DNA of 64,000 nucleotides, from contig CBDAQA010000032.1 in the NCBI GenBank assembly GCA_965198865.1, positions 37,571 to 101,570 on the forward strand, in the 5' to 3' direction. Made by a program: the position numbers and the translations under genes. This DNA comes from Tepidisphaeraceae bacterium (GTDB taxonomy: Bacteria > Planctomycetota > Phycisphaerae > Tepidisphaerales > Tepidisphaeraceae). The notes under the pieces are model-generated. The model made no database searches. It had not been told where the DNA came from and worked only from the letters and a program-made list of their open reading frames with translations. Of the stretch, positions 1 to 33,437 are shown piece by piece. Numbering within the stretch: position 1 is the stretch's first letter; every line of letters starts with the position of its first letter.

Positions 1-97
1 ACGCTGGAGCCGCCACAACACCGCCTGGCGCCCCGGCAAGGACGGCATCCAAACGATGCTCCGCCGCATCGACAACGCGCTGCGGGGTGACCAATGA
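1..97 (+). CDS. 3' end of an upstream CDS that runs off the window; possibly the E2-like partner of the downstream E1
   Basis: Frame 2 is open from the window edge to TGA at 95-97. The stop overlaps the ATG at 94 (ATGA junction). Only 31 aa are visible, so no domain call is possible. Confidence 0.3.
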   Translation, partial: RWSRHNTAWRPGKDGIQTMLRRIDNALRGDQ

Positions 98-2028: not shown

Positions 2029-2304
2029 ATGATCCGCACCGACGACATCCGCAAGCTGAGCGACTTCCGGCAGAACGCCAAGGCCCACCTGGACCGGCTG
2101 GCCGAGACCGGCCGCATCGAGGTGCTGACCGTCAACGGCGAGGCTAAGGCGGTCGTGATGTCGCCCCGCGTGTTCGACGAGATGGCGGCCCGCATCGAGC
2201 GGCTGGAGACGACCGTGTCGGCCCGCCGGGGCCGCACCGAGGCGGCGGGGGCCGGCCGATCGCGGCGCGACGTTCGACGGCCGCAGGCGAAGGCCGCGAC
2301 ATGA
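2029..2304 (+). CDS. Phd/YefM-family type II antitoxin-like protein
   Basis: N-terminus ..SDFRQNAKAHLDRLAETGRIEVLTVNGEAKAVVMSPRVFDEM is a typical Phd/YefM fold signature. ATGA overlap with the next gene. Confidence 0.7.
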   Translation: MIRTDDIRKLSDFRQNAKAHLDRLAETGRIEVLTVNGEAKAVVMSPRVFDEMAARIERLETTVSARRGRTEAAGAGRSRRDVRRPQAKAAT

Positions 2305-12595: not shown

Positions 12596-13627
12596 GAGCA
12601 GGTTCAGTTGAGCCGTAGCGCTATGGGGATCGCACTGGTACTTTCCGAATCTCAAGGAGAGGCACCAGATGGCATATTCGACCGACATCCGTTCCCGCGT
12701 GCTGGCCCTGTACGACGACGGCGTGAAGACGGCGGCGATTGCCAAGCAGCTGATGGTGTCGCCGGCCTGGGCGCGGCGGGTCAAGCAGCACCGGGACGCC
12801 GACCCGGCCCTGCGGCGGCCGGTCGGCGGGCGCAAGCCGAAGCTGGACCGGGCGGGCCGCGACCAACTGGCGAAATGGGTGGCAGAACGGCCCGACGCGA
12901 CGCTCGAAGAGCTGCGGGCGCGCGTGGCCAAGGAGCTGAAGGTCACCGTCAGCATCGGGTGCCTCTTCAACACGCTGCGGGCCCTGAAGCTGACCTTCAA
13001 GAAGAAGTCGCTCGTCGCCGCCGAGCAAAAAGAACGCCCCGACGTATCCAAGGCCCGCGACGCGTTCTTCGCCGAGCAGCTGAAGGGCGTGCCGCTGGCC
13101 GACATCGTCGTGATGGACGAGAGCTACGCGACCACGCAGTTCACGCGGTTGCGTGGCCGCGCCCCGGCGGGCGAGCGGCTCCACGAGCACGTGCCCCACG
13201 GCCACTGGAAGCGCCTCACGATCCTCGGCGCGATGACCGTGTCGGGTCCACTGGTCGCGACGACGATCGACGCCTCGACGTGCGGCGACACGTTCCGCAC
13301 GTTCGTCGACGACTTCCTCTGCCCGGCCCTGCGGCCGGGGCAGGTCGTCGTCATGGACAATCTCTCGGCCCACAAGGTGGCGGGCATCCGCGCCTCGATC
13401 GAGGCGGCCCAGTGTCGCCTGGTCTACCTGCCGCCGTACTCGCCCGACCTCAGCCCGATCGAGCCGATGTGGTCCAAGGTCAAGCAGGCGTTGAGGACCG
13501 CGGCCCAGCGGACCGTACAAGGTTTGATCGACGCCGTCGGCCCCGCGTTCGCCACGGTGACCGCCGGCGACTGCCTGGGCTACTTCACACACTGCGGATA
13601 CACGCTACACCTCAAGTGAAAATGCTC
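12596..13627 (+). mobile_element. IS630/Tc1-mariner-family insertion sequence
   Basis: 25-bp imperfect terminal IRs (GAGCAGGTTCAGTTGAGCCGTAGCG versus the reverse complement of CGCTACACCTCAAGTGAAAATGCTC, 20/25 matching). TA duplications flank it at 12594-12595 and 13628-13629. Confidence 0.85.
12669..13619 (+). CDS. IS630-family DDE transposase
   Basis: VVMDESYA..VVMDNLSAHK..LPPYSPDLSPIEPMWSKVK. Confidence 0.9.
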   Translation: MAYSTDIRSRVLALYDDGVKTAAIAKQLMVSPAWARRVKQHRDADPALRRPVGGRKPKLDRAGRDQLAKWVAERPDATLEELRARVAKELKVTVSIGCLFNTLRALKLTFKKKSLVAAEQKERPDVSKARDAFFAEQLKGVPLADIVVMDESYATTQFTRLRGRAPAGERLHEHVPHGHWKRLTILGAMTVSGPLVATTIDASTCGDTFRTFVDDFLCPALRPGQVVVMDNLSAHKVAGIRASIEAAQCRLVYLPPYSPDLSPIEPMWSKVKQALRTAAQRTVQGLIDAVGPAFATVTAGDCLGYFTHCGYTLHLK

Positions 13628-17876: not shown

Positions 17877-18424
17877 GCCGCCACCACTCTGCGTACGGGC
17901 ACCGTGCATGGGCGACGGTGGGCCGCCACCCGGTCCTGGCGTTCGGCGCGGCGGCGACCGCCGCCCTCGGCGTCGCGTCGGGCCTGCTGGCCGACCGGCA
18001 GGTGGTGCTGAACACCTCGCCCAGCGTGCCGCCGGGCCTGTACGTGCGGTCGTCGGCCCCGCCGGCCGTCGGCCGGCTCGTCGACTTCCGGGTCCCGCCC
18101 GCCGCCCGGCTGTACGTGCTCGCCCGGTCGGGCCGGGACGGCCGCGACTGGTACATCCTCAAGCCGGTCGTCGCCGGCCCAGGCGACCGGGTGGACACGA
18201 CGGGTCCGTGGCTGACCGTCAACGGCCGGCCGCTCGCCCCGATGCCCCTGGCCGCCGACGGGTCCGGCCGGCCGCTGCCGGTCTGGCGGGCGCGGCGGTC
18301 GCTGCGGCCGAGCGAGTTCCTGGTCGTCTCCACCCGGATCGCCAACAGCTTCGACAGCCGCTGCTACGGGCCGGTCACGACGGCGCAGATCGCCGCCGTC
18401 CGCGTGCCGCTGGTGACCTGGTGA
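17873..18424 (+). CDS. traF: S26-family signal peptidase, conjugative TraF type
   Basis: NTSPSVPPGLY (catalytic Ser context) and NSFDSRCYGPV. Only the last 183 aa of track ORF 17231-18424 are used. Confidence 0.75.
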   Translation: MSRHHSAYGHRAWATVGRHPVLAFGAAATAALGVASGLLADRQVVLNTSPSVPPGLYVRSSAPPAVGRLVDFRVPPAARLYVLARSGRDGRDWYILKPVVAGPGDRVDTTGPWLTVNGRPLAPMPLAADGSGRPLPVWRARRSLRPSEFLVVSTRIANSFDSRCYGPVTTAQIAAVRVPLVTW

Positions 18425-18546
18425 GGCTCGGTTGCGGGATGCCGGGGAACTCGACGCGGCGGTGCGGCGAACGCGGTCGGCCTACTGCCCTCAGCACTCG
18501 CGCGAGGCGATCGCTTGGCGCGGGCGCAGACCAGACCGTTGAGCTT

Positions 18547-18797
18547 GCCCGTCGGAAGGGAGAAGGAAGGCGGCGGGGCCCCAGCTCCCGCTCCGCTCTC
18601 GAAAGATCACCGGCCTGCGGCCTTGCCATGCTCGCCTCCTCCCCGGGGACGTACCCGGGTCCGGGGGCTGCGGCGTGGCATGCCCTTCGTCCGCTCCGCT
18701 CCCGCGTTCCCGCCGCCTGCGGCGTGGAGTGCTGACCATTAGGTCAGGTTGTTGACCTCCCGGCCTGCCTTCTTCCGAAGGCCGGGAGGTCAACAAC
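18547..18797 (+). repeat. Noncoding repeat copy A (3' module plus terminal hairpin), upstream of DUF932
   Basis: About 90% identical over roughly 190 nt to 25253-25440, with 4-nt and 1-nt indels that break every frame. Ends in an 18-bp perfect hairpin (18748-18765 / 18780-18797). Confidence 0.7.
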
Positions 18798-18877
18798 ATG
18801 CGGCGGCCGCGGGCCGACGCCATCCCGGTCCCAGACACCCCGGGGCCCTCGCGCCCCACCATCGGGAGGTGCCCACC

Positions 18878-19885
18878 ATGGCACACGAGATCGACCTGAC
18901 CACCGGGACCGCCGCCGTCTTCGTCACCGGGCAACCCGCCTGGCACGGACTGGGGCGGTGCATCGAGCACGCCGCGACCAGCGCCGACGCGATCGGCCTG
19001 GCCGGGCTGGACTGGGCCGTCCAGCAGTGGCCCGTCCGGGCGTTCGACCCGGACCACCACAGCACCGAGGCCGGCATCCCCGACACGGTCGCCAACGTCC
19101 GCACGGACACCAAGGCCGTGATGGGCGTGGTCGGCCGGCGTTACCGCGTGTTCCAGAACCGCGAGGCGTTCGACTTCATGGACGCCCTCGTGGGTGACAA
19201 GCTGGCCATGTACGAGACGGCCGGCAGCCTGCACGGGGGCCGCCGCGTTTGGATGCTGGCCCGCATTCCCAAGGAGTACCGGGCCGGGGCGGACGACCTG
19301 GTCCGCCCGTACGTGCTGCTGACCAACACCCACGACGGCACGCAGGCCCTGCGAATGATCCCGACCACCGTCCGCGTCGTCTGCCAGAACACGCTCAACC
19401 TGGCCTTGCGGGAGGGCGGCGTCGAGGGGTTGAGCATCAGCCACCACCCGCGACTAGAGGGGCGGGTGGCCGAGGCCCGGGCCAAGCTGGGCATCATCGC
19501 CGCCCGGTTCGACCGGTTCGACGAGGAGATGCACGCCATGCTGGCCAAGGACCTGAGCGTCGCCGAGGCGGGCGGGTACTTCCGCGGCCTGTCCGGGGCC
19601 GACCTGCCGGCCACGTCGCAGCGGCAGAAGAACTCCCGGGAGCGGGTGCTCGGTCAGCTGCTGGCCAACTTCGACAACGACCGCAACACGCTGCCCGGCA
19701 TCCGCCACACCGCGTGGGGCGCGTACAACGCGGTCAGCGAGTGGGCCGACCACCAGAAGGCGTACCGCGGGGGCAGCCCCGAGGAGAAGCGGAACCGGCG
19801 GCTGGACTCGGTCTGGTTCGGCACGTCCCACCAGCTGAAGCAGGCCGCCTACCGCGGGGCCCTGGAGCTGGCCGGCGTCGCCTGA
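18878..19885 (+). CDS. DUF932 domain protein (phage/plasmid leading-region family)
   Basis: AWHGLG..VRTD...VMGVVG.RY.V.QN.EAF.F.DALVG....YETAGSL.GGRRVWMLA..VLLTN.HDG..AL....TTVRVVCQNTL. ATG at 18878 with GGGAGG 9 nt upstream. Confidence 0.85.
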   Translation: MAHEIDLTTGTAAVFVTGQPAWHGLGRCIEHAATSADAIGLAGLDWAVQQWPVRAFDPDHHSTEAGIPDTVANVRTDTKAVMGVVGRRYRVFQNREAFDFMDALVGDKLAMYETAGSLHGGRRVWMLARIPKEYRAGADDLVRPYVLLTNTHDGTQALRMIPTTVRVVCQNTLNLALREGGVEGLSISHHPRLEGRVAEARAKLGIIAARFDRFDEEMHAMLAKDLSVAEAGGYFRGLSGADLPATSQRQKNSRERVLGQLLANFDNDRNTLPGIRHTAWGAYNAVSEWADHQKAYRGGSPEEKRNRRLDSVWFGTSHQLKQAAYRGALELAGVA

Positions 19886-19906
19886 CCCGAGGCATCCGAC
19901 ACACCC

Positions 19907-19938
19907 GCCCGCCCCGGTGCCAACCCGCCGGGGCGGGC
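19907..19938 (+). terminator. GC hairpin after the DUF932 gene
   Basis: 11-bp perfect stem GCCCGCCCCGG / CCGGGGCGGGC with a 10-nt loop, followed by TT. No long U tract. Confidence 0.4.
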
Positions 19939-19996
19939 TTGCCGCAGGGCACCACGCCCCGCCCTAACATCGTCCGACCCAAGTGGAGCGGCCACT

Positions 19997-20911
19997 GTGA
20001 GCCTCACCCGTGACCCCATCCCGGCCGTTCCCCGCCTGCCGGCCGAACTGACCGCCGTGGCCCAGTGGCTGCTGTGGCGGCGGGAGGACCGCCACGGCCG
20101 GCCGACCAAGGTGCCGTACGCCGCCGCGACCGGCCGCCGGGCGGACGTGACCGACCCGGCCGCGTGGGCGACGTTCGCCGCCGCCCGGGCGGCACTGCTG
20201 GCCGGCCGCGGCCGGTACGCCGGGCTAGGCTTCGCCTTCGCCGCCGGTGGGCCGTTCTGCGGCGTCGACCTAGACGACGCCATCACGCCGGCAGGTCAGT
20301 TGTTTCCGTGGGCGGTCCGGATCGTCGCGAGCCTGAACACCTACGCTGAGGTCAGCCCCAGCGGCCGGGGCGCGAAGCTGGTCTGCCGGGGGCGGCTGCG
20401 GCCCGGGCCGGACGGCCGGACCCGGCACAAGCGGGTCGGGCTCGGGCCTGACAGGGCCGGGTCCGTCGAGCTGTACGACGGCCGGCGGTTCTTCACGCTG
20501 ACCGGCCGGCCCGTGCCGGGCCAGCCCGGGCCGCTCCCTGTCGCCGCACGCCAGCCGGCGCTGGACGCAGTCTGCCGGGAGCTGTTCCCGCCACCCCGGC
20601 CGGTCCCGGCCCGACGGTCACCACCGGCACCCGGGTCGGCCGACGACGATGCGATCTTGGCCCGGGCGGCCGCGGCGGGCGGAACCCGGTTCGCCCGGCT
20701 GTGGGCCGGCGACGCCGCCGCATACGGCGGCGACCGCTCAGCCCGGGACGCAGCTCTGTGTGCATCGCTGGCCGGGCAGACGCGGGACCCCGATCAAATC
20801 GCGCGTCTGGTTAGCCGGTCCGGGTGCGACCGACCCAAATGGTCGGGCCGGCCCGACTACCGGGACCGGACCATCCGGTTTGCCCTAGGCGCGGCAAACC
20901 GCACGGGGTAG
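19997..20911 (+). CDS. AEP-family primase-polymerase (PrimPol) domain protein with a PriCT-like C-terminus and no helicase domain
   Basis: QWLLWR....GRPTKVPY, GFAF..GGPFCGVDLDD (DxD), YAEVSPSGRGAK, ELYDGRRFFTLTG, and C-terminal SARDAALCASLAGQTRDPDQIARLV..S. Confidence 0.7.
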   Translation: MSLTRDPIPAVPRLPAELTAVAQWLLWRREDRHGRPTKVPYAAATGRRADVTDPAAWATFAAARAALLAGRGRYAGLGFAFAAGGPFCGVDLDDAITPAGQLFPWAVRIVASLNTYAEVSPSGRGAKLVCRGRLRPGPDGRTRHKRVGLGPDRAGSVELYDGRRFFTLTGRPVPGQPGPLPVAARQPALDAVCRELFPPPRPVPARRSPPAPGSADDDAILARAAAAGGTRFARLWAGDAAAYGGDRSARDAALCASLAGQTRDPDQIARLVSRSGCDRPKWSGRPDYRDRTIRFALGAANRTG

Positions 20912-20927
20912 GGCGCGCGTACGCCCG

Positions 20928-20952
20928 TCCCGGCCGGCTGCGCCGGCCGGGA
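20928..20952 (+). terminator. GC hairpin after the PrimPol gene
   Basis: TCCCGGCCGG-ctgcg-CCGGCCGGGA, a 10-bp perfect stem. Confidence 0.4.
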
Positions 20953-21019
20953 TGGGAATGGGAGCGGCAACGCCGGGTGCCGCGTCTCTCGCGTGCGGCA
21001 GCATGGGGACCGACCATTG

Positions 21020-21061
21020 CCGCCGCCCGTTGCCGCGGCTTCTCCCCGCGACGGGCGGCGG
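21020..21061 (+). other. 11-bp perfect-stem hairpin immediately upstream of a strong promoter
   Basis: CCGCCGCCCGT ..20 nt.. ACGGGCGGCGG. Ends 17 nt before the -35 hexamer at 21078. Confidence 0.4.
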
Positions 21062-21077
21062 CGAAAACGGCTCGGCG

Positions 21078-21107
21078 TTGACACGGACGTTGTGCTCGGA
21101 CTATAAC
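21078..21107 (+). promoter_or_regulatory. Near-consensus sigma70-type promoter (TTGACA-N18-TATAAC)
   Basis: TTGACA at 21078-21083 and TATAAC at 21102-21107. Conspicuous in GC-rich DNA. Points toward the small ORF / XRE / RT genes. Confidence 0.5.
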
Positions 21108-21426
21108 GCCGTCGCCAGAGAGATACGCCTTGGTTGTTCCCCCGCTCCTGACCTCGGCCAGGACGGCGTCCCGGTGAGGGACTCGTCACCCAAGCCCGCT
21201 CGCTCGGCCCCGTGTTGCCGTTCTCGCACGGGGATGCCGGTCGCCTCCACGACTGGCCCGAGCCTTGGGGTTGGGCGATGGCGGCGACGTCGCGGCCGAT
21301 GGGTCGCGACGCCGTCGCACTGGACGCTCAACGTCCGCAGCTGTTGCCCGCAACAGCCGCAGCCGTCGATCGCACAGAGTTGGGCCACTGTGGCCCTTCG
21401 TCACGTTCAGCAACCAAGGAGCTTTT

Positions 21427-21666
21427 ATGTTCGGAGGCAACTCGCCTGGCGAGTCGTCCCCTGACTGCGTCGTCCACCAGGCCATTGTCGAGTGGTGGGA
21501 GGCGATCGAGACGGGCGGCGACTTCGGTTCGACGAATTGGGAGACCCTCGTGTCCTTGCGTCACTCGGTGACCGCGGCCCTCGCGGCCAGCCCGCCACAA
21601 CTCGACTACGCTGGCCGCCAGACCGCTCTGGCGATGATGCTGGTCACCGGGCGGACGCTTCACTAG
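21427..21666 (+). CDS. Hypothetical 79-aa protein
   Basis: ATG at 21427 preceded by AAGGAG (21416-21421). No recognisable domain. Confidence 0.45.
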   Translation: MFGGNSPGESSPDCVVHQAIVEWWEAIETGGDFGSTNWETLVSLRHSVTAALAASPPQLDYAGRQTALAMMLVTGRTLH

Positions 21667-21688
21667 GGCTCCCTTAACTGAACAACAC

Positions 21689-22021
21689 GTGCCCACCGCG
21701 GCACACGACCGTATGAACCTTGGACCAACAGCACGAGCCCTCCGCGAGGAGTTCGGCATCACTCAACGGGCGGCGGCCGACCGTCTGGGCGTCACCTACG
21801 CCCACCTGTGTAACGTGGAGGGCGGCAAGGCCCGGCCGTCGCCCGAACTGCAGGCCAGGTACGGCGAGGTGTTCGGGGTCGATCTTTACGTGTACGCCTG
21901 GTGCACGTCGGGCGAACTCGATCGCATGCCGCCCGCCATGCGGGGCCCGACCGAGCGGCTGGCCGACGCGTGGCGCAAGTTGATCGAGCAGCGCCGCCGA
22001 CAGTTCAACGCCGCGGGGTGA
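21689..22021 (+). CDS. XRE-family HTH transcriptional regulator
   Basis: LGPTARALREEFGITQRAAADRLGVTYAHLCNVEGGKARPS. An alternative ATG start lies at 21713. Confidence 0.75.
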   Translation: MPTAAHDRMNLGPTARALREEFGITQRAAADRLGVTYAHLCNVEGGKARPSPELQARYGEVFGVDLYVYAWCTSGELDRMPPAMRGPTERLADAWRKLIEQRRRQFNAAG

Positions 22022-22024
22022 GCC

Positions 22025-23011
22025 ATGCTCGGCGTCAGGTCAGTCGGCGAGCTGGCGGCCGTCCTGAAGACGACGCCCCGGCGGATGTTCGACGTGGCCG
22101 CTCGCAAGGGCGACCACGTCCGGCGATATGAGTTGGTCGACCCGGCCAAGCCGCACAAGGCCCCGCGTCCCGTCCTGTCTACCACCGGCCCCTACCGCCA
22201 ACTGCAAACACAGATCCTCCGCGGGCTGCTCGGCCCGCGACTGCGGCCGAGCCCGTACAGCTTCGGCGGGATCGCCGGGCGGAACGCCGTCCAGAACGCA
22301 CGCCAGCACCTCGGGTCCAGCTTCGTCTTCACGACCGACATCCGGAACTTCTTCCCGAGCATCAATTTTTGGCAGGTCCGGGACACGTTCGAGCGCCGGT
22401 TCCGTTGCCCGCCGGACGTCGCACTGCTGCTCGCCACACTATGTACTCACGACGGCCACCTCGCTCAGGGGCTGATGACGTCACCGATTCTGGCCGACCA
22501 TGCCGTGCGGCGGATTGACGCCCGGATCGGCGGGCTGTGCGACGGTCTGGGGCTCGTCTACACGCGGTTCGTGGACGACGTGACCGTCTCCGGCCGGTTC
22601 GGGCTGGACAAGACCGAATCGGCGGTGGTGCGATTGATCCGCCAGATCCTCGGCGAGTCTGGGTTCGCCGTAGCCCTGCACAAGGAGCAGGACGGGCGGC
22701 TGTCCGACGGCGAGGTGGCCGTGACCGGCTACCGCCAACTCCGGTCACGCTTGGACGTGGCGTCCGACTATATCCGCGGGCTGGAACGGAGCCTTGAGTC
22801 ACATCGACTCCTCGGCCTCGGCGAGCCGTTCCACGGCCTGCTGTTCACGCGGGATCAGCTGGCCGGGAGGGTCGCCCACGTGTGCAACGCGAATCGGAAC
22901 CGCACTCGCCCCCTGAGCCAGCAATTGGCGGCCATTGATTGGGACGGCGTGCGAGCGAACGCCGAGGCACGGGGCCTCCTGGTCTGTCGTAAGCAACTGC
23001 GACCTGTGTAA
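22025..23011 (+). CDS. Retron-type reverse transcriptase
   Basis: SFGGIAGRNAVQNARQH.GSSFVFTTDIRNFFPSI (motifs 1-A), LAQGLMTSPILAD (motif B), YTRFVDDVTVS (motif C, YxDD variant) and a downstream VAVTGY (retron VTG motif). 328 aa, with no endonuclease, maturase or CRISPR domains. Confidence 0.8.
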   Translation: MLGVRSVGELAAVLKTTPRRMFDVAARKGDHVRRYELVDPAKPHKAPRPVLSTTGPYRQLQTQILRGLLGPRLRPSPYSFGGIAGRNAVQNARQHLGSSFVFTTDIRNFFPSINFWQVRDTFERRFRCPPDVALLLATLCTHDGHLAQGLMTSPILADHAVRRIDARIGGLCDGLGLVYTRFVDDVTVSGRFGLDKTESAVVRLIRQILGESGFAVALHKEQDGRLSDGEVAVTGYRQLRSRLDVASDYIRGLERSLESHRLLGLGEPFHGLLFTRDQLAGRVAHVCNANRNRTRPLSQQLAAIDWDGVRANAEARGLLVCRKQLRPV

Positions 23012-23073
23012 ACGGCACCCGGCCGGGCAGCCACGGCTTGATCCCCACCAGCGTCACGCAACTCACAAAGACC

Positions 23074-23350
23074 GCGGACGTGGGTGCAAGGACCCCTGAG
23101 TACAGCGGTCCCCGCCCCCACACCCCCTGCCCCCCGCGGCCGATCCGGTGAGCGTGCCTGCCGGAAGGGAAGGCGGACCGCCTCCGGCGGACGGTCCCGT
23201 TCGCCTTCGTCTCGTGTCGGGCGAGCGTACGCAGCCGTGCTCGCCGTCAAGGTCCCCCCCGCGGCCGTACCGCGGGACCCTCCCTCCGGGCAGCTCCACC
23301 CTGACGGCTCCGCGCGGCCGCGTCCCCCTTCCTCCATCGAGGTGAAGGGC
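23074..23350 (+). repeat. Noncoding repeat copy B (5' module), upstream of ardC
   Basis: 23074-23180 is nearly identical to 25172-25280 (GCGGACGTGGGTGCA(A/G)GGACCCCTGAGTACAGCGGTCCCCGCCCCCACACCCCCT..). The 3' part diverges. Confidence 0.6.
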
Positions 23351-23408
23351 GGGTGCTGGGTTGTGTCCCACACCCCCGACGCCTGAGTCCCGAAGGGAGC
23401 CGTGCCCC

Positions 23409-24290
23409 ATGTCCAAAGAGTTCGACCTCTACCAGACCGTCACCGACCGGATCGTCGCCATGCTCGACGCCGGCGTGGTGCCGTGGCGGTCGCCGATCCT
23501 CTCCGCCGGCCCGGCCGGTCGGCCCAAGAACTTGGCCAGCGGGCGGCCGTACCGCGGCGTCAACGTCTTTCTCCTCGCCTTCGCCACGTTCGAGCGGGGC
23601 TACGCCTCGCCGAACTGGGTCACGTTCAATCAGGCCCGGGAGGCGGGCGGGATCGTCCGCAAGGGTGAGAAGTCGTCCATGGTCGTGTTCTGGAAGGTGT
23701 ACGACACGGCCGACCGCAAGACCGGCGAGCCGACGCGGGTTCCCGTCCTCCGCTACTACAACGTGTTCAACGTCGGGCAGTGCGACGGCATCGCCGACCC
23801 AGAGGCGGTGTCGGCGGCCCCGGCGACCGACTTCCAACCGGTGGAGCGGGCCGACGCCATCCTGGCCGGGTTCGAGGGAAAGCCGCCGATCGAAGTGGCA
23901 GGCACCCGGGCGTTCTACCGCCCGGCGACCGACACGGTCACCATGCCCGGGTCGGCCCGGTTCGCGTCAACCGAGGCCTACTACGCCACCCTCTTCCACG
24001 AGCTGGCCCACAGCACGGGCCACCCGTCCCGCTTGCACCGGGAGACGGTCGCCGACCCGCAGCCGTTCGGGACGGCCGACTACGGCAGGGAGGAGCTCGT
24101 GGCGGAGATGTCGGCCGCGTTCCTCTGCTCGGCGGCCGGGATCGGGCCGGCGACGATCGACAACCAGGCGGCGTACCTGGGCGGGTGGCTGAAGCAGATC
24201 CGGGGCGACAAGCGGCTGGTCGTGACCGCCGCCGGGGCGGCCCAGCGGGCGGCCGACTGGATCCTGGGCAACCGGGACCAGCCCGGGTGA
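23409..24290 (+). CDS. ardC: ArdC-type antirestriction protein (ssDNA-binding N-domain plus metalloprotease C-domain)
   Basis: LYQTVTDRIVAMLDAGVVPWRSP......P.N..SGRPYRGVNVFLL and TLFHELAHSTGH (HEXXH). Confidence 0.9.
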   Translation: MSKEFDLYQTVTDRIVAMLDAGVVPWRSPILSAGPAGRPKNLASGRPYRGVNVFLLAFATFERGYASPNWVTFNQAREAGGIVRKGEKSSMVVFWKVYDTADRKTGEPTRVPVLRYYNVFNVGQCDGIADPEAVSAAPATDFQPVERADAILAGFEGKPPIEVAGTRAFYRPATDTVTMPGSARFASTEAYYATLFHELAHSTGHPSRLHRETVADPQPFGTADYGREELVAEMSAAFLCSAAGIGPATIDNQAAYLGGWLKQIRGDKRLVVTAAGAAQRAADWILGNRDQPG

Positions 24291-24296
24291 GCGGGG

Positions 24297-24324
24297 CCGA
24301 CGGCCACGCCCTTACGGCCGTCGG
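24297..24324 (+). terminator. GC hairpin after ardC
   Basis: CCGACGGCC-acgcccttac-GGCCGTCGG, a 9-bp perfect stem starting 7 nt after the stop. Confidence 0.4.
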
Positions 24325-24590
24325 CGGACCCCGCCGGCGGCCGCGGTCCGCTTGCCGTGCGGGATCGGTTCGTCATGAAGTCGCGGCCGGGCGGCCGCGC
24401 GGCATGTCGACGGGTCCGGCCGGCTGCGCCGGCCGGACCAGCGCGGGGGAGCCGGCCTCCGGGGCCGGCCCGCTCCCCCGCGACCCCCTCGCCCGCCCGG
24501 GATGGCGGACCGCCAGGCCGGCCCTGCGGGCCGGCCGCGGCGGACGCCAGACTGGCTTGTCGCGATAACAGGCGATACCCCGCTGTCCCA

Positions 24591-24995
24591 TCAACTACGC
24601 CCTGCGTTAGGCGTGAATCGGTAAGTGCCGTCCCCCTGACCGAAGTCGCGCAGCTCCAAGCGTCCGTCCGCCAGTTCCGGCACCGTGAACAGGCGGCCGA
24701 CACCGGACCAGCTCGCCATGCCCTCCCGCCAGACTTCACAATGCCAGCCGACCTGACCGCCCCTCAGCAGCGCGATCAGATCCACCGTGGGGTATGGCCC
24801 GCACTGCTGTGGACCGTCCCGAACCGTCCACGCCGCCCCGGCACGCCCGACCATTGCAAGCAGGTTCGCCGCCCGGCTGGCGGCCGACCGGAGCCGGTGC
24901 AGACACGGCGTGCAGACCACGCGACGCTCGGCCCAGACGTTCGCTTTCGCCCGTGGGCCGATGACCTTGCCGCACTCGTCGCACGCTGTTTCCAA
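24591..24995 (-). CDS. Zinc-ribbon plus GYF_2 (DUF4339)-like domain protein
   Basis: N-terminal CDECG..(x17)..CTPC, then W.V.DG.QQCGPYPTVDLIALLRGGQVGWHCEVWREGMASW. Confidence 0.6.
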   Translation of the reverse strand: METACDECGKVIGPRAKANVWAERRVVCTPCLHRLRSAASRAANLLAMVGRAGAAWTVRDGPQQCGPYPTVDLIALLRGGQVGWHCEVWREGMASWSGVGRLFTVPELADGRLELRDFGQGDGTYRFTPNAGRS

Positions 24996-25171
24996 TCGCT
25001 CCTCCGATCGTCCCCGCCGAGGCCGGCCTGCTCCCGAACATCCTCACGCGAGTTGTACCGCGCTGCGCCGCCCGAACGTCTGGACCGGTCGTCGGGGCAG
25101 ACGCGCAAAGCTCGGCCCGGGGAGCGGTGACTGCGTCGTCACGTGCCCTGAGCGGGGGCAGAGCAGAAATT

Positions 25172-25487
25172 GCGGACGTGGGTGCAGGGACCCCTGAGTA
25201 CAGCGGTCCCCGCCCCCACACCCCCTACCCCCCGCACCAAGCCGGTGAGTGTTCCTGCCGGAAGGGAGAAGGAAGGCGGCGGGGCCCCAGCTCCCGCTCC
25301 GCTCTCGAAAGGTCACCGGCCGGGTACGGCCTTGCCATGCTCGCCTCCTCCCCGGCGTACCGGGTCCGGGGGCTGCGGCGTGGCATGCCCTTCGTCCGCT
25401 CCGCTCCGCGTTCCCGCCGCCAGCGGGGGCGTGGGTCAGTCTTTGACCTCCCGGCCTGCCTTCTCGCGAAGGCCGGGAGGTCAAAGA
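25172..25487 (+). repeat. Noncoding repeat copy C (5' module + 3' module + terminal hairpin), upstream of ssb
   Basis: The 5' third matches copy B and the remainder matches copy A. 17-bp perfect hairpin at 25440-25456 / 25471-25487. Confidence 0.7.
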
Positions 25488-25580
25488 ATTGCGTGGACCT
25501 CGGGGCCTTCGCCATCCCAGCAAGCGACGCGGGCACCCCAACGTGTCCGGTCCGCCTTCGCCATCAGAAGGAGGCCAGCC

Positions 25581-26090
25581 ATGGCCAGCAGCTACAACCG
25601 GGTGATCCTCATGGGACGCCTGACCCGGGACCCCCAGGCCGGCACGTTGCCCAGCGGGACGGCGGTGTGCGAGCTCGGGCTCGCCGCCAACCGCCGGTGG
25701 CGGGACCGCGACGGGGTGACCCGCGAGGACGTCCTGTTCATCGACTGCACGGCGTACGGGAAGGTGGCCGAGACCCTTGCCGCCCACCTGACCAAGGGCC
25801 GGCCGGTCCACGTCGAGGGGCACCTGAAGCTGGACCGGTGGGAGCAGGCCGGGCAGCCCCGGACCAAGGTCCGCGTGGTCGTCGAGCAGTTCCGGTTCGT
25901 CGACCCGCCGCCGGGCGAGCGGGCCAGTGGCGGACGCGACCGTGCGCCCGAAGACCGGCCCGACGGCACCCCGGGCCAGCCCGCCGCCCCGGCCAAGCGG
26001 GCCACCCGCGGCCGACGCCGGCCGCCGTCCGCACGGCCGCAGGTGACTGCCCCGGCGGCCGCCACCGGCGACGACGACGTGCCGTTCTGA
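25581..26090 (+). CDS. ssb: Single-stranded DNA-binding protein
   Basis: YNRVILMGRLTRDP......G.AV....LA.NR.W.......E...FIDC.AYGK.AE.....L.KGR.V.VEG.L, with the acidic tail DDDVPF. Confidence 0.9.
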   Translation: MASSYNRVILMGRLTRDPQAGTLPSGTAVCELGLAANRRWRDRDGVTREDVLFIDCTAYGKVAETLAAHLTKGRPVHVEGHLKLDRWEQAGQPRTKVRVVVEQFRFVDPPPGERASGGRDRAPEDRPDGTPGQPAAPAKRATRGRRRPPSARPQVTAPAAATGDDDVPF

Positions 26091-26199
26091 ACCGCGGGAC
26101 ACCGGGCGGCGGTCACTTCGGCCGCCGTCCCCGCCCGCCGGTTCGCTGCGCTTCCCGTTCCCCCGATCCGACACCGACACACAGCACAGAGGTACACCC

Positions 26200-28170
26200 A
26201 TGTCCCGCCAGACTTCCACGATCCAACGCGACCGTGACGCCGTCTTGATCCCCCTGTCCAAGCTGGTCCCCGCCGGCCGCCGCAACCCCCGCCGGGTCAA
26301 GCCCGAGCGGGACGCCCACCGCCGCCTGGTCGCCAGCATCCGGGCGCACGGCCTGCTCCAGCCGCTGGTCGTCCGGCCCGTCACGGCCACTTGTGAAGGC
26401 AACGACAAGCCGGCCAACGGCCAGCCCGGCGCGTACCGGGTGACGGCCGGCCACCGCCGCCTGGCCGCCCTCCGCGAGGTCCACCGGGGCGACGACGCCG
26501 TCCGCGTGCCGTGCGTCGTCCGCCCGGTCGACACCGACGACGCGGCCGACGCCCAGGCCCTGGCCGAGAACTTCGCCCGCGAGCCGATGCACCCGCTGGA
26601 CGAGGCGACCGCGTTCGCCAAGCTGGCCCGGGAGGACGGCCGGGACGCCGAGGCCATCGCCGCCGACTTCGGCGTCACGCCCGCCTACGTCCGCCAGCGG
26701 ATGAAGCTGGCCGACCTGTCCGATGCGGTGCAGTCGGCGTACCGGGCCGGCGAGATCGACACGGCCACGGCCGAGGCGTTCGCCGCCGTCCCGCCGGACA
26801 AGCAGGCGGCCGTGTGGGCCGAGGTCGGCGGCCGGCCGCAGCACGCGGCCCACGTCCGCAACGTGATCGCCAACGGGTGGGTCGACGCCGCCCACGCCCT
26901 GTTCGACGTGTCGCAGCTGCCCGACTGGACCGTCAGCCGGGACCTGTTCGGCGACCGGGTCCTGGTCGAGCGGGCGGCGTTCCTGTCCGGCCAGTCGGAG
27001 GCGCTGGCCGACGAGCGGCAGCGGCTGGCCGAGGACGGCTGGGCCGAGGTGGTCGCCGGGTGCGCCGCAGACGTGCGGGACCGACTCTGGTCGATGAACG
27101 AGGCACCGCACGCGTACGACGAACCGACCACGGCCAAGCTGGCGAAGCTGGCCACCCGGCGGCAGGAGCTGGAGGACCGGTACACCGAACTGGACGGCGA
27201 CAACGACCCGGACGACGCCATTAGTGACGCCCTGGCCGCCAAGCTGGAGGCGGTCGACGAGGCCGAGCGGGCCCTGACGACGGACGCCGCGGTCCGCTAC
27301 GCCGAGGCGACCAAGGCGGTCGGGACCGCGTTCCTGATCCTGGACCCCGACGGGCAGGTCCGGCGGGAGTACCGGGTGCCGCGGGCCCGGCCGGGACAGG
27401 CCACCGGCCACGGTTCGGCGTTCGGGCCGGACGGCGTCACGCCGGCCGCACCGCAGCCGCCCACGTCCGACGACCTGCGGGAGTCGCAGCTGGCCGCCAC
27501 GTTCACGCACCAGGCGATGGCCGTCCGCCAGGCGTTGCTGGCATACCCGATGGTCCGCCGGCGGGTGCTGGCCGTCGCCCTGCACGACCGGGTCCGGGCC
27601 GAGGGGCTGGCCGTCCGCCACGACGCCAACGGGACGACGCTGCACGCCGACCACGCCGAGTCGTTCGCGTCCGCCGCCCGGGACGAACTGCGACAACGGC
27701 GGGCGGAACTCGACCCGCTGCACGACCGCGGGCTGGTGTCGGACGCCGAGGCGTACGCCGCCGTGGCGGCGCTCCCGGCCGAGCGGCTGGACGCCCTGAT
27801 CGACCTGCTCACAGTGGAGTGTGTGACGGCCCACCTGCAGCGGCGGACGGACCTGGTCTGCCGGCTGGCCGAGGAGTTGGGCGTGGACGTCCGGCGGCAC
27901 TGGCGGCCGGACGCGGCGTGGCTGGCCGGCTACCAGAAGGCGCAGCTGGTCCACCTGACGTACCAGCTCCGCGGCCCGGCGTACGGGGGCGCGGCGGAGC
28001 GGAAGAAGAAGTCGGAGCTGGTCGCCGAACTCGCGCAGCTGTTCGCCGATGCCGCCGCCGGCACGCTGGCCGACGGCCCGCTAGCGGCTCGCCTGAACTG
28101 GTGGCTGCCGGCCAACCTGCGGCCCCAGCTGTCGGCCGACGCACCGGCCGTTCGGTCCGACGCCGCCTGA
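26200..28170 (+). CDS. Large ParB/Srx-domain protein (KorB/ParB-like, 656 aa)
   Basis: LIPLSKLVPAGRRNPR......SIRAHGLLQPLVV and YRVTAGHRRLAAL. Confidence 0.8.
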   Translation: MSRQTSTIQRDRDAVLIPLSKLVPAGRRNPRRVKPERDAHRRLVASIRAHGLLQPLVVRPVTATCEGNDKPANGQPGAYRVTAGHRRLAALREVHRGDDAVRVPCVVRPVDTDDAADAQALAENFAREPMHPLDEATAFAKLAREDGRDAEAIAADFGVTPAYVRQRMKLADLSDAVQSAYRAGEIDTATAEAFAAVPPDKQAAVWAEVGGRPQHAAHVRNVIANGWVDAAHALFDVSQLPDWTVSRDLFGDRVLVERAAFLSGQSEALADERQRLAEDGWAEVVAGCAADVRDRLWSMNEAPHAYDEPTTAKLAKLATRRQELEDRYTELDGDNDPDDAISDALAAKLEAVDEAERALTTDAAVRYAEATKAVGTAFLILDPDGQVRREYRVPRARPGQATGHGSAFGPDGVTPAAPQPPTSDDLRESQLAATFTHQAMAVRQALLAYPMVRRRVLAVALHDRVRAEGLAVRHDANGTTLHADHAESFASAARDELRQRRAELDPLHDRGLVSDAEAYAAVAALPAERLDALIDLLTVECVTAHLQRRTDLVCRLAEELGVDVRRHWRPDAAWLAGYQKAQLVHLTYQLRGPAYGGAAERKKKSELVAELAQLFADAAAGTLADGPLAARLNWWLPANLRPQLSADAPAVRSDAA

Positions 28171-28269
28171 CCGGGCGCACGCCACCCGGCACTTGGCCAC
28201 ATTCGCAACGCCGGGTCGGCCAACGCCGACCCGGCGTTCGCTTGCGCACTGCCACACGTCGCCGACCCG

Positions 28270-28599
28270 TCACTCCCACGGGTGCGGCAGCCGCACGACC
28301 GGGTGGCGCACCGATGCGGCGAATACTTCGGCCACCGCCCGCCAGGCCCCGCCCCGCTGCGCGACCCGCAGCCATGCGTACTCCCACAGGGCGCACTGGA
28401 CGCCCACGCCGAACGTGAACCCGATCGGCAGCAGGACGGCCGACGGGTGCCCGCGGGCCATCCACAGGTAGAACGCCCAGAACCACAGCCCCAGGTCGGC
28501 CAGCACCTCGGCACAGCAGAACAGCACCACGACCAAGATGCCCAGTTGCACCAGCCCCAGCACCACCAGGAACCGGCACGCCTCTCGGAACGCTCGCAT
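28270..28599 (-). CDS. Small hydrophobic (multi-TM) hypothetical protein
   Basis: FLVVLGLVQLGILVVVLFCCAEVLADLGLWFWAFYLW is predicted TM helices by eye. Internal ATG at 28599 chosen. Confidence 0.35.
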   Translation of the reverse strand: MRAFREACRFLVVLGLVQLGILVVVLFCCAEVLADLGLWFWAFYLWMARGHPSAVLLPIGFTFGVGVQCALWEYAWLRVAQRGGAWRAVAEVFAASVRHPVVRLPHPWE

Positions 28600-28743
28600 C
28601 GGGTCACCTCCTCGTCCGCGACAACGGGCCGAGTTACCAACTCGCACGCGGAGTCCGCAACGGTTTTCTCACCCGAACTCGCGGGCGGCATCTCGCGCTC
28701 TTCGGAGCAGTCCAGTCCGACTGCACGGCGGTCTGGATTCGCG

Positions 28744-28771
28744 TTGATCGACCACTCCGACCCGGTATAAT
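28744..28771 (+). promoter_or_regulatory. Sigma70-like promoter TTGATC-N16-TATAAT upstream of the relaxase gene
   Basis: TTGATC at 28744-28749 and a perfect TATAAT at 28766-28771. Confidence 0.45.
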
Positions 28772-28996
28772 CGGTGACTTGCAATCGGGTCCGGCAAGCG
28801 GGGTGTCCTGCTGTTGGACCGGACTGCTGGGCCGGATGAGGGCGGATTGCAAGGTAAAAGGGTCCCAGGTGTCGTTGTCGTAGCCTTTGCCTTCGGCAGG
28901 GTTTGTGACAACCGCCCTGCCCGCCCGCCCAGTGGGAACCACCTTGGCCGCTTTCGGCCGTCCTACTGCCCGTTCCTCACCCCCGGAGGTGTGGCC

Positions 28997-30958
28997 ATGC
29001 CCCGCAGGAGCAACCTGTCCCGTGACCGCGTCGATGCCGACCGGATCGGCCGCATGGGCGGCCGCCACCCCGGCCAGGGAGGCGTCGGCGGCGCGCTCGC
29101 CCGCCGCCTGGGACGCGCGAAGATCGGCAGCCGGCCGCGGCCGTCGGCCGGCTTCGGCCGCCGCCAGCGGGTGGTCGTCAAGGCGCACGTGAGCCGACAC
29201 AAACCGGGCAAGGCGCGGGGCAGTTTGGCCCGCCACGCGTCGTACCTGGGCCGCGAAAGCGCCAGCGTCGACGGCCGTCCCGGCGTGTTCTACGACGCCG
29301 CCCAGACCGGCGTGGACACCCGCCGGACGGTCGCGGGTTGGGTGGATGACCGCCACCACTTCCGCCTGATCGTCTCGCCCGAGCACGGCGCGGGCGTCCC
29401 CGACCTGACGGCGTACATCCGCGAGACGATGCGCCGCGTGCAGCGAGACCTGGGCACCGACCTGACCTGGGTGGCGGTCAACCACCACAATACGGACAAC
29501 CCCCACGCGCACGTCGTGGTCCGCGGCCGGCGGGCGGACGGGGCCGACTTGGTCATCCCCCGGCGGTACGTCTCGCACGGCATCCGCGACCGGGCGAGCG
29601 AGGTGGCGACCGAACTGCTGGGCGAGCGAAGCGTGGCCGAGGTGCGGTCGGCCAAGGGCCGGGAGGTGGAAGCCGAGCGGTTCACGTCGCTGGACCGCAC
29701 GATCGAGCGGCACCTGGACGGCGGCCGGATCGACCTGTCCCGGGATCGACGGATCGGCTTCGACCGGGACGACCGACAGCTGGTTCAGGCCCGGCTGCAG
29801 TTCCTCGCCGGGCTCGACCTGGCACGCAAGGAACGCGGCAACCGGTGGCGGGTGGAGCCGACCTTCCGCCAGGCGTTACGCGACCTGGGCGGCCGGAACG
29901 ACGTCATCCGTCAGCTGCACGCGACGATGGGGACGGAGGCCGGACGGGTGGAGCGGGCGACGGCCGGCCGGGCCCCCGTGAGCGGCATCGTGGTGGCCAA
30001 GGGGAGCCCCGACGAGGCGGGCGACGACCGGTTCGTGGTCGTCCGCGACGCGGCCGGGCGGGCGCACTACGGCCGGGTCCGGGACGGCGAAGCGTTCCGC
30101 GACCTGAGGGTCGGGTCGGTGGCCGAACTGGGGGCGGCGACGCATCGTCGCCACGCCGCGATGGAACAGGTGGCGGCCGTCACGGCGGCGCACGGGGGTA
30201 CCTACTCGGCCGACATGCACGCCGACTTCCTGCGCCAGACCCGGCCGGATGTGGCAGCCGGAGAGATTACCTCATTGACTCGTTCGGCGGCGGGGCGGCT
30301 GGCCTTCCTGGCCGCTTCGGACGGGTCGGGCGTGCGCGACCTGGGCGGCGACCGGTACGCCGTGGACCCGGGAGCGGCGACCCGCCTTGCCAGCGCCGCC
30401 GGCGAGCGGACGGACGTGCGGGTGGTCGCGGCCTACCCGTTGGCGGCGCAGGTGGAGGCCCACGCTGTGACCTGGCTGGACCGGCAGTTGGTGCCGTCCG
30501 GACGCGACGACCGGGTGCGCGATCACCCGGCCGTTACGGCTGCGATGGCGGAGCGACAGCAGTGGCTCGTGACGCACGACTATGCCGACCGGGCGGCAGA
30601 CGGGCGCGTCACGTTGCGCCCGGACGCGCTCCGCCGGTTGGCGGCCGAGGAACACGCCGCGGTCGCCGATCGGTTCGCCCACCGACACGGCCTGCCCGTG
30701 TCGGAGCTGGCCGTCGGCGACGCCGTCGCCGGCGAGTACCGCGGGACCGAGCGGCTGCACGGCGGCTCGCTGGCGGTGGTCGTCACCATCGGCGGCGTGG
30801 TGGTCGCGCCGGTCGAGCGGACGCCCGACGTGGCGGTCGGCAGCACGGTCGAGCTGGACCGCCGGGGCGGCCGGCGGGCGACCGTGACCCCGCTCGCCGG
30901 CCAATCGCTGGACCGTCAGACCGGGGCCGAGCTTGACGGGTTGGAGGCCGGCCGATGA
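28997..30958 (+). CDS. Conjugative relaxase with a DUF3363-type C-terminal region
   Basis: HFRLIVSPE.. and VNHHNTDNPHAHVVVRG (HxDxxxPHxH relaxase histidine motif). ATG at 28997 with GGAGG upstream. Confidence 0.85.
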   Translation: MPRRSNLSRDRVDADRIGRMGGRHPGQGGVGGALARRLGRAKIGSRPRPSAGFGRRQRVVVKAHVSRHKPGKARGSLARHASYLGRESASVDGRPGVFYDAAQTGVDTRRTVAGWVDDRHHFRLIVSPEHGAGVPDLTAYIRETMRRVQRDLGTDLTWVAVNHHNTDNPHAHVVVRGRRADGADLVIPRRYVSHGIRDRASEVATELLGERSVAEVRSAKGREVEAERFTSLDRTIERHLDGGRIDLSRDRRIGFDRDDRQLVQARLQFLAGLDLARKERGNRWRVEPTFRQALRDLGGRNDVIRQLHATMGTEAGRVERATAGRAPVSGIVVAKGSPDEAGDDRFVVVRDAAGRAHYGRVRDGEAFRDLRVGSVAELGAATHRRHAAMEQVAAVTAAHGGTYSADMHADFLRQTRPDVAAGEITSLTRSAAGRLAFLAASDGSGVRDLGGDRYAVDPGAATRLASAAGERTDVRVVAAYPLAAQVEAHAVTWLDRQLVPSGRDDRVRDHPAVTAAMAERQQWLVTHDYADRAADGRVTLRPDALRRLAAEEHAAVADRFAHRHGLPVSELAVGDAVAGEYRGTERLHGGSLAVVVTIGGVVVAPVERTPDVAVGSTVELDRRGGRRATVTPLAGQSLDRQTGAELDGLEAGR

Positions 30959-32823: not shown

Positions 32824-33437
32824 GCGACGACGCACTGACGGACACACCCACGCCCGGCAGCCGTGGGCCGGTCGGCCACGCGACCGGCGGCGGCGGCCAC
32901 CGCGTGCAGGTCACGGTGTTCCTGGAGCCGGCCGTCCACCGGGCGGCCAAGCGGCGGGCGGCCGAGGCCCACCTGTCCCTCTCGGCGGTCGTGGCCGAGG
33001 CGGCCAAGGAGTCGCTCCTGTCCAGCTATCGGTCCGACCGGGAACAGGAGCTGCTGCGGGCGGCCGACCGCAACTTCCACGCCCTCCGCCGCCTGGACGG
33101 GCGGCTGCGGCTGGAGGTGGCCGTGCTGAAGGAGATGGTCGGGCTGGGCGTACGGTCGTTCCTGAACCACACGCCGCCCGTGCCGGAGTCGGGCAAGGCC
33201 GCGGCCCTGCTCAGCGGCAAGCAGCGGTTCGGCCGCTACCTGGACCTGGTCGCCGCCAACGTCCGCGGCGGCGACTCCGTCCTGGCCGACGTGACGTCGC
33301 CGGAGTCGCCCGCCGAGGCTGGCGACGAGGTCGACCGAGGTGCGGGCAACCCACCCGCGCCACCAGCAGGTCCGGACGCCGCGGCCGGTGGGGCGGTGCG
33401 GCAACACCAATCCACCCCGACAGGAGCACACCCATGA
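32820..33437 (+). CDS. CopG/RHH-like protein between traG and trbB
   Basis: VTVFLEPAVHRAAKRRAAEAHLSLSAVVAEAAKESL is a ribbon-helix-helix pattern. The position is conserved in Tn4371-type ICEs. Confidence 0.6.
   Translation: MSDDALTDTPTPGSRGPVGHATGGGGHRVQVTVFLEPAVHRAAKRRAAEAHLSLSAVVAEAAKESLLSSYRSDREQELLRAADRNFHALRRLDGRLRLEVAVLKEMVGLGVRSFLNHTPPVPESGKAAALLSGKQRFGRYLDLVAANVRGGDSVLADVTSPESPAEAGDEVDRGAGNPPAPPAGPDAAAGGAVRQHQSTPTGAHP

Follow-up and report, generated by a model that had tools for sequence, protein, structure and literature searches.

The 64-kb stretch of contig CBDAQA010000032.1 (Tepidisphaeraceae bacterium) analyzed here, hereafter called the window, has a GC content of 70% and carries a gene for an XRE-type helix-turn-helix (HTH) protein directly followed by a gene for a reverse transcriptase (RT). 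Both genes probably belong to a complete Type VI retron which is carried as cargo on a conjugative element. An earlier note on this DNA had described an operon of XRE gene and RT; the gene pair was recovered, but the description was incomplete, as a gene for a 79-aa small protein (SP) and a structured RNA leader in front of it had been overlooked. The locus is larger than described and consists of a promoter, a leader resembling the hyRNA of published Type VI retrons, and the genes for SP, HTH protein and RT. Type VI retrons are defined by an RT, a Cro/C1-type HTH protein of 91-110 aa and auxiliary proteins of 75-79 aa without known domain that fold into three-helix bundles (PMC7736814). In the classification of Mestre et al. 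(2020) they combine a clade 3 RT with a Cro/C1 HTH protein of cluster 2_1 and a small three-helix auxiliary protein (PMC7736814). The SP of 79 aa with three predicted helices and the HTH protein of 102-110 aa fit the published definition. Gene set and gene order, family assignment, promoter and covarying RNA helices were computed directly for the locus. It is probably a new and distant member of a known retron type with an SP family of its own, and no new kind of system.

The RT has the whole retron-style motif series quoted in the earlier note, namely NARQH (N91-H95), TTDIRNFFPSI (D105), QGLMTSP, FVDD at residues 182-185 (D184, D185) and VTG at about 233-235 (T234). Within an alignment of the 39-member family H95, D105, D184 and D185 are invariant and N91 and T234 nearly invariant. 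Pfam assigned the protein to RVT_1 (7e-11) and the best PADLOC model was RT_VI with 1.9e-46 and 156.6 bits, a margin of 28 bits over the runner-up (128.9 bits); RT_VI matches all 39 family members. The retron models of NCBIfam were matched with 1e-26 to 1e-31, and a profile search of PDB sequences returned retron RTs first (Ec86 with 6e-42, then Ec67, Kva2 and Ec78); other RTs, those of group II among them, ranked far below. Together with the NAxxH, YxDD-type and VTG motifs these matches place the RT, as far as its sequence tells, within the retron clade. The earlier note saw no features of introns or diversity-generating retroelements (DGR). In 20500-23600 neither group II intron RNA nor any further Rfam family was detected, and none of the direct repeats of at least 40 nt involves the RT gene, so that nothing DGR-like is visible at that length. 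An Rfam scan of the same interval at permissive threshold gave chance-level matches only, to eukaryotic and archaeal small RNAs, which were discarded. Megablast with 18000-33000 found no counterpart among plasmids, from which a tblastn search with the RT retrieved distant retron RTs only (<32% identity). Searching assemblies for an exact copy of the window RT returned no record.

The stop codon of the HTH gene (TGA, 22019-22021) and the start codon of the RT (ATG, 22025) are separated by 3 nt, as the earlier note had stated. The HTH protein matches Pfam HTH_31 (1e-9) and HTH_3 (1e-7), and its best PADLOC model is HTH_VI (1.6e-9, profile positions 1-89 of 92). With RT_VI and HTH_VI as best models, the locus joins a retron RT to a small HTH protein, a pairing which had been pointed out for some retron classes. 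The HTH gene was found immediately upstream of the RT in 35 of the 35 closest loci. Its translation likely starts from the in-frame ATG of position 21713 (102 aa) and not from the GTG of position 21689, since the homologs comprise 98-103 aa and align from residue 9 onward. By analogy the protein is a candidate antitoxin and repressor: in Retron-Sen3 the HTH protein is the antitoxin of SP (10.64898/2026.04.27.721009), and in Retron-Vpa2 mutation of the HTH gene is toxic (10.1101/2025.10.22.683967).

The SP has no match in Pfam, NCBIfam or PADLOC. Homologs are encoded directly upstream of the HTH gene in 27 Planctomycetota loci (tblastn, E values down to 4e-15), each of them behind a ribosome-binding site (RBS) of the AGGAGG type, and the 79-aa open reading frame (ORF) is, on this comparison, evidently a real gene. 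A profile search of a database of 5.8 billion proteins enlarged the family to 57 proteins, all unnamed, in which W24 and T66 are invariant. The AlphaFold2 model comprises helices at residues 12-30, 38-53 and 59-74 with a mean pLDDT of 78. The small protein is the toxic effector in both Type VI systems studied so far (10.1101/2025.10.22.683967; 10.64898/2026.04.27.721009). A second retron copy in the metagenome-assembled genome (MAG) MFD00008.bin.3.132 (relative L008, 5397-5421) has an SP N-terminus which is out of frame with the upstream ATG when compared to the near-identical paralog L005; this represents either a frameshift or a TTG start.

Some 30 Planctomycetota loci keep the order SP-HTH-RT. 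Among metagenomic relatives, the five closest to the RT (53-58% identity) were retrieved by exact look-up; their called genes encode, in the same order, proteins of 79-81, 98-103 and 329-358 aa. The more distant proteobacterial relatives likewise show the order SP-HTH-RT. All close relatives of RT, HTH protein and SP derive from Planctomycetota genomes and MAGs, distributed over Phycisphaerae, Tepidisphaerales, Pirellulales and Gemmataceae and including one Singulisphaera plasmid, a distribution which points to a planctomycete host.

A non-coding RNA (ncRNA) resembling msr-msd, which the earlier note could not locate with confidence, was found in the leader. The structured RNA extends over 21108-21451, that is from the promoter across the RBS of SP and into its coding sequence. 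The fold of 21108-21690 reached a z-score of -5.4, none of 100 shuffled sequences being equally stable, and a transcript starting at about 21113 is highly structured. Two helices close the structure. Helix P1a joins the 5' end of the leader to codons 5-9 of SP; it is present in the minimum free energy (MFE) folds and was recovered by RNAalifold on seven sequences of the subclade of the window, with compensatory changes at six pairs. Helix P1b joins an anti-Shine-Dalgarno stretch to the Shine-Dalgarno sequence (SD) of SP. Its equivalents in the relatives differ in sequence, yet stay complementary (CCAUAGGUCU/AGACCUAUGG, CUUUCAGUCU/AGACUGAAAG, UCUCCCACG/CGUGGGAGG and others), and when each relative was folded on its own, the MFE structure paired the SD with the 5' CUCC region in 21 of 26 cases; the fold of the window does so as well.

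Both helices were examined by a partner-swap test, in which duplexes between the 5' and the 3' segment of one and the same locus were compared in energy with all mismatched pairings. For P1a the cognate pairs reached -20.95 kcal/mol and the non-cognate pairs -17.52 kcal/mol (0 of 10,000 permutations), for P1b the values were -22.30 and -16.17 kcal/mol (0 of 20,000 permutations). An alternative closing helix of 11 bp between 21110-21120 and 21626-21636, at the 3' end of SP, exists in the window but is not conserved across the family and was rejected (-20.3 vs. -19.9 kcal/mol; 4091 of 20,000 permutations). The test is thus not trivially positive, as this helix served as a negative control. The same 11-bp complement is reminiscent of the closing repeats of the Vpa2 hyRNA.

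Inside P1a and P1b two or three short hairpins are followed by long variable stems and then by a conserved hairpin, modules which are visible in the alignments of the relatives (A2, A7). Of the two msr-like hairpins of the window, hp2 was recovered by RNAalifold within the subclade. The majority clade has a three-hairpin msr-like module with compensatory changes in 14 of 15 pairs, in which 92.8% of the cells are paired, compared to 78.5% after shuffling and 31-45% after sliding; a covariance model of this module (R1) matched 26 loci at the expected place. The msr-like part of the window's subclade is divergent. A second model (R2) was built from five subclade relatives with the window left out, and its best match in the whole 64 kb lies at 21108-21198 on the plus strand (E about 0.008). 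The 3' hairpin just upstream of the SD shows compensatory changes and appears as GGGAnUC...GAnUCCC in the majority clade. The stems at 21184-21377 vary in length and sequence among the relatives, a variability also described for the msd/SL3 region in Type VI retrons (10.64898/2026.04.27.721009), and we infer that they are the candidate msd, the template for reverse transcription. A structured ncRNA closed by inverted repeats, with P1a and P1b around msr-like hairpins and variable stems, therefore adjoins the RT operon.

This layout matches the published hyRNA design of Retron-Vpa2 and Retron-Sen3. The hyRNA of Type VI retrons comprises msr-msd and the SP coding sequence with a sequestered RBS (10.1101/2025.10.22.683967); the ncRNA lies at most about 300 nt from the SP start, its candidate msd is a long and variable stem-loop, the RBS of SP is part of the basal stem, and the transcript reaches into SP as a "hybrid RNA". 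In subclade leaders (L001, L162, L164, L167; alignment A10) the 5' arm CGUCAG has a further complement in CUGACG, the 3' strand of hp1, and RNAalifold prefers this local pairing when given only the 5' 90 nt. A possible explanation is an alternative conformation or a switch.

The first base given for the locus in the earlier note, 21078, is the first base of a sigma-70-type promoter. Its pattern TTGACA-N18-TATAAC occurs a single time in the 64 kb, with 0.00 occurrences expected by chance, and in 26 of 27 relatives a TTGACA-N15-19-TTTAAT box precedes SP by 200-340 nt. The promoter was detected by comparison with the relatives and by pattern search; a scan for consensus promoters and terminators found nothing and overlooked it because the -10 hexamer ends in C. 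In the relatives the hexamers usually enclose the palindrome TTAAAC-N5-GTTTAA, and the promoter of the window holds the imperfect palindrome GTTGTG...CTATAAC, which may be the operator of the HTH protein.

Several points weigh against the assignment to a complete Type VI retron. The type call was made by ranking of hidden Markov models (HMM), a proxy for placement of the RT in the Type VI group of RT clade 3, and by architecture. Within the leader, neither the priming (branching) guanosine nor the boundaries of msr and msd could be assigned, Rfam holds no matching family, model R1 fails on the window leader even with filters off, and the match of R2 is modest (16 bits). The SP shows no sequence similarity to the collected proteobacterial Type VI SPs (hhalign probability 0.4%), it may still equal one of the published clusters 2075, 2760, 3272, 3897 and "Large", and Foldseek returned no PDB structure for the SP model at E <= 0.001. 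The putative equivalence of SP to the published toxins is one of position, size and predicted helical fold only. The dissimilarity agrees with the published finding that SP clusters of Type VI are unrelated to each other in sequence. Finally, msDNA (multicopy single-stranded DNA) production, toxicity and defense are all things which we infer for this locus.

For the complete Type VI retron we propose the following mechanism. The promoter at 21078 would drive a single transcript composed of the leader of about 320 nt, SP, HTH and RT, and the long variable stems of the leader would presumably serve as template for msDNA. The 5' end of the leader would fold back on the translation start of SP, with 21128-21136 on the RBS and 21113-21122 on codons 5-9, and in the resting cell this pairing should limit translation of SP. 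In analogy to Vpa2 and Sen3, RT and HTH protein would bind the leader RNA, and the HTH protein would restrain reverse transcription and neutralize SP; probably it also represses the promoter via its palindrome. A phage signal could then lead to accumulation of msDNA or to loss of HTH control, upon which the three-helix SP would be produced or released and arrest the cell. The triggers in the Type VI systems studied are phage recombination proteins or RecBCD inhibition.

The double clamp on SD and early codons favors translational gating as in Vpa2. Control of the same retron could also be exerted as in Sen3, with constitutive SP and msDNA, binding of SP by the HTH protein, and post-translational activation via sensing of RecBCD inhibition, so that the leader pairing would only tune the level of SP. 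We regard such control as a serious alternative because Sen3 sequesters the RBS and yet makes SP constitutively; HTH protein and SP are adjacent and co-conserved, and sequestration of the SD is compatible with both modes. Nevertheless we hold it to be rather unlikely, as the two covarying helices clamp SD and early codons more extensively than reported for Sen3, which suggests real translational repression. Planctomycetota may moreover lack canonical RecBCD.

Judging from its genes, the window is evidently part of a conjugative element, in agreement with the context claimed earlier. Besides the retron it carries genes for a serine recombinase, ParB-like and ParB proteins, DUF932, PrimPol, ArdC, Ssb and a DUF3363 relaxase, and those of a type IV secretion system (T4SS) with VirD4-type coupling protein, VirB11, VirB10/9, VirB6 and VirB4 homologs. 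The position of the RT between the PrimPol gene and ardC/ssb was recovered as described. The label "leading region" is plausible; it draws only on gene content (ardC, ssb, ParB-like, DUF932, PrimPol). A sister element with a backbone 87-96% identical to the window is present in three copies or variants (L169, L170, L171) on two multi-megabase contigs of assembly GCA_030012865.1. In blastn, the homology of L170 to the window (87%) runs through DUF932 and PrimPol and stops at 20886; it resumes with 89% at 23073, in the repeat element and ardC. In between, L170 holds an unrelated insert of 1.3 kb with a broken tyrosine-recombinase gene. Since the same backbone holds a different insert at this place, the retron represents cargo in a variable slot. 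Its GC content is 0.65-0.70 compared to 0.72-0.78 in the flanks, and at third codon positions (GC3) 0.77-0.84 compared to 0.94-0.96 in the neighboring genes. L169 and L171 have other content after PrimPol, and none of the alternative inserts carried by sister elements gave a PADLOC match.

No ardC, ssb, PrimPol or relaxase gene lies within 6 kb of the homologous retrons, most of which are chromosomal. Of the closest relatives, the one in L161 (1919-3835) is located directly beside a gene for a Piwi-domain protein of the prokaryotic Argonaute type (pAgo), and those in L167 (4009-6999) and L168 lie beside genes for a 1813-aa DEAD/Helicase_C/MZB protein and a PNKP-type RNA repair protein. These settings resemble defense islands. 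Of the two interpretations which the earlier note had offered for the unusual placement, defense cargo is supported, whereas a role in establishment found no support.

The module could also mainly serve the conjugative element that carries it, and not the anti-phage defense of the host, either as a toxin-antitoxin (TA) system for addiction or stabilization or as a weapon in competition with other mobile elements. The T4SS, the relaxase and the serine recombinase would fit such a role, SP and HTH protein form a toxin/antitoxin-like pair, and AbiEi/AbiEii, a TA-type module, is encoded on sister elements, namely in the backbone of L170 and L171. We think this unlikely, as the homologous retrons mostly lie on chromosomes and lack conjugation genes in the surrounding 6 kb, the closest ones adjoin pAgo or helicase defense genes, and the characterized Type VI retrons defend against phages (10.1101/2025.10.22.683967; 10.64898/2026.04.27.721009); the roles are not mutually exclusive.

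A more far-reaching and quite doubtful reading is that early entry of the locus into the recipient is functional and that, separately, the closing helices couple msDNA synthesis to toxin expression. If so, the retron would be switched on at entry of the element, before HTH protein accumulates, and would immediately arm the new host or else serve the element as a checkpoint on entry or as an addiction module. In the lineage of the window the closing helices sit on the RBS and first codons of the toxin gene itself. If reverse transcription primes at the closing helix, as at the canonical a1/a2 repeats, the cDNA would cross the translation-initiation region of SP, and msDNA synthesis would be physically coupled to toxin expression, unlike in Vpa2 and Sen3.

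That the RT helps to establish the transferred DNA in the recipient, by priming or copying the incoming strand or by anti-defense, we consider very unlikely. The retron does lie between PrimPol and ardC/ssb in the same direction of transcription, and a repeated intergenic element occurs in three copies around these genes. But the sister element lacks the retron and holds an unrelated insert at the slot, which puts the retron outside the core of transfer and establishment functions; the retron relatives are unlinked to ardC, ssb, PrimPol and relaxase genes; and the locus has every component of a self-contained defense retron. Hardly credible at all is an RT of another defense class (UG/DRT, Abi) or a degenerate group II intron, readings for which weak secondary HMM matches speak (Drt3a 2.8e-7; group II intron RT/maturase 1e-4) but against which retron models score better by 20-40 orders of magnitude, the best PDB matches are all retron RTs, the NAxxH and VTG motifs are present, Rfam finds no intron RNA in 20500-23600 and a covarying retron-like ncRNA lies upstream; the RT thus does not fall to a non-retron clade, an outcome that the earlier note had named as one that would speak against a retron.

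The repeated intergenic element comprises 250-330 nt. Its three copies, A to C, lie directly upstream of genes of the leading-region type (DUF932, ardC and ssb, respectively), with sub-blocks that are 84-100% identical, and a perfect hairpin, TTGACCTCCCGGCC...GGCCGGGAGGTCAA, is common to copies A and C. It may act as a promoter or regulatory unit shared by these genes, possibly as a single-strand promoter. Folds of single-stranded DNA of copy B gave z-scores of only -2.0 and -2.8 for the two strands, too weak to call a single-strand promoter. Compared to L170 and L171 the window has an insertion of about 1 kb which coincides with an IS630-family (DDE_3) transposase gene and is a recent insertion of an insertion sequence (IS) into the backbone of the element. 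Further genes of defense or modification type in the window are listed in Table 1.

Table 1. Features of the retron locus, the conjugative element and the remaining window (positions in the window).
Feature	Position	Strand	Basis
Sigma-70-type promoter: TTGACA (21078-21083), N18, TATAAC (21102-21107)	21078-21107	+	pattern search, comparison
Non-coding part of retron RNA, about 320 nt, msr-msd-like leader ("nc-hyRNA")	21108-21426	+	fold z-score, model R2, alignments
P1a 5' arm CGCCAGAGAG, pairs with 21441-21451 (SP codons 5-9, P1a 3' arm)	21113-21122	+	RNAalifold, partner-swap, MFE
P1b 5' arm CCUUGGUUG, anti-Shine-Dalgarno stretch, pairs with 21411-21419	21128-21136	+	9-bp perfect complement
msr-like hairpins hp1 UCCUGA-CCUCGG-CCAGGA (21146-21163) and hp2 GUCCC-GGUGA-GGGAC (21168-21182)	21146-21182	+	RNAalifold, homologous module
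Variable long stems (candidate msd): branched 21184-21279, 17-bp hairpin 21281-21318, stem 21320-21377	21184-21377	+	inverted repeats I6, I1; MFE folds
Conserved 3' hairpin GGGCCA-CUG-UGGCCC	21382-21396	+	RNAalifold with compensatory changes
P1b 3' arm CAACCAAGG (21411-21419), overlapping SP SD AAGGAG (21416-21421)	21411-21421	+	folds, partner-swap
SP, 79-aa small helical protein, candidate toxic effector	21427-21666	+	tblastn conservation, RBS, AlphaFold2
Cro/C1 (XRE)-type HTH protein, 102 aa (110 aa from GTG 21689)	21713-22021	+	Pfam, PADLOC HTH_VI
Retron RT, 328 aa, ATG start	22025-23011	+	catalytic motifs intact, PADLOC RT_VI
Variable cargo slot, PrimPol gene to repeat element upstream of ardC; holds whole retron	20887-23072		blastn of L170
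PrimPol-like gene	19997-20911		
ardC	23406-24290		
ssb	about 25590-26090		
Repeated intergenic element, copies A to C	18530-18813, 23074-23400, 25172-25504		
Insertion relative to L170/L171	12597-13626		
IS630-family (DDE_3) transposase gene	12669-13619		
ThiF-JAB	94-1497		
IrrE/M78 peptidase	2301-3449		
Eco57I-type N6 methyltransferase	35945-39076		
DndB	51048-52196		
ResIII/DEAD helicase	53041-54954		
PLD-SNF2 helicase	59544-62768		

In 2020 Type VI was the sole retron type without a recognized ncRNA, and its mechanism is only now emerging from two proteobacterial examples which disagree on the control of the toxin. The locus and its approximately 30 relatives represent an independent, phylogenetically distant lineage of Planctomycetota, in which a putative toxin gene embedded in the retron RNA with a sequestered RBS becomes visible from covariation alone. 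The shared design in so distant a lineage supports the idea that it is ancestral to Type VI, and sequence variation among the relatives provides natural material for tests of translational versus post-translational control. Comparison with the sister element shows cassette-like exchange of the retron at one fixed position of the conjugative element. Annotation of the RT should include the leader and the 79-aa ORF.

Compared to known systems, the locus agrees with the Type VI retrons of Mestre et al. (2020) in the order SP-HTH-RT, in an HTH protein of 102-110 aa encoded directly upstream of the RT, in a 79-aa SP without known domain and with predicted three-helix fold, and in RT_VI and HTH_VI as best HMMs. 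It differs in its Planctomycetota-like host phylum with 70% GC and in an SP that forms a sequence family of its own (57 members), unlike the proteobacterial SPs tested. With canonical retrons such as Ec86 (Type II-A) it has in common the RT fold family, according to the Ec86 profile match of 6e-42, the NAxxH, YxDD-like and VTG motifs, and an ncRNA with terminal inverted repeats around msr hairpins and a long msd stem. Canonical retrons use abundant msDNA as antitoxin and a separate enzyme as effector, whereas in the window the effector coding sequence would lie inside the retron RNA and the HTH protein is a third component. Closest in design are the two characterized Type VI retrons. Retron-Vpa2 from Vibrio parahaemolyticus has a hyRNA with msDNA-dependent derepression of SP translation (10.1101/2025.10.22.683967), and the window shares with it a single structured transcript with msr-msd-like part and SP coding sequence, the sequestration of RBS and start region of SP by pairing, and long-range inverted repeats which link the 5' part to SP. 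In Vpa2 the 3' end of the hyRNA of about 470 nt folds back from beyond the SP coding sequence, while in the window the covarying closing helix lies on codons 5-9 of SP and pairing of the SP 3' end is not conserved; the SPs have 55 and 79 aa, respectively. Retron-Sen3 from Salmonella enterica and the cl2075 lineage (10.64898/2026.04.27.721009) are unrelated in RNA and SP sequence, and the trigger of Sen3, RecBCD inhibition, may not apply in the host of the window. The window nevertheless shares with Sen3 an ncRNA at most about 300 nt from the SP start, several stem-loops and a long internal stem-loop with variable center, an RBS of SP within the basal stem, an SP of 79 aa and an HTH protein as antitoxin, which in the window is a candidate for this function.

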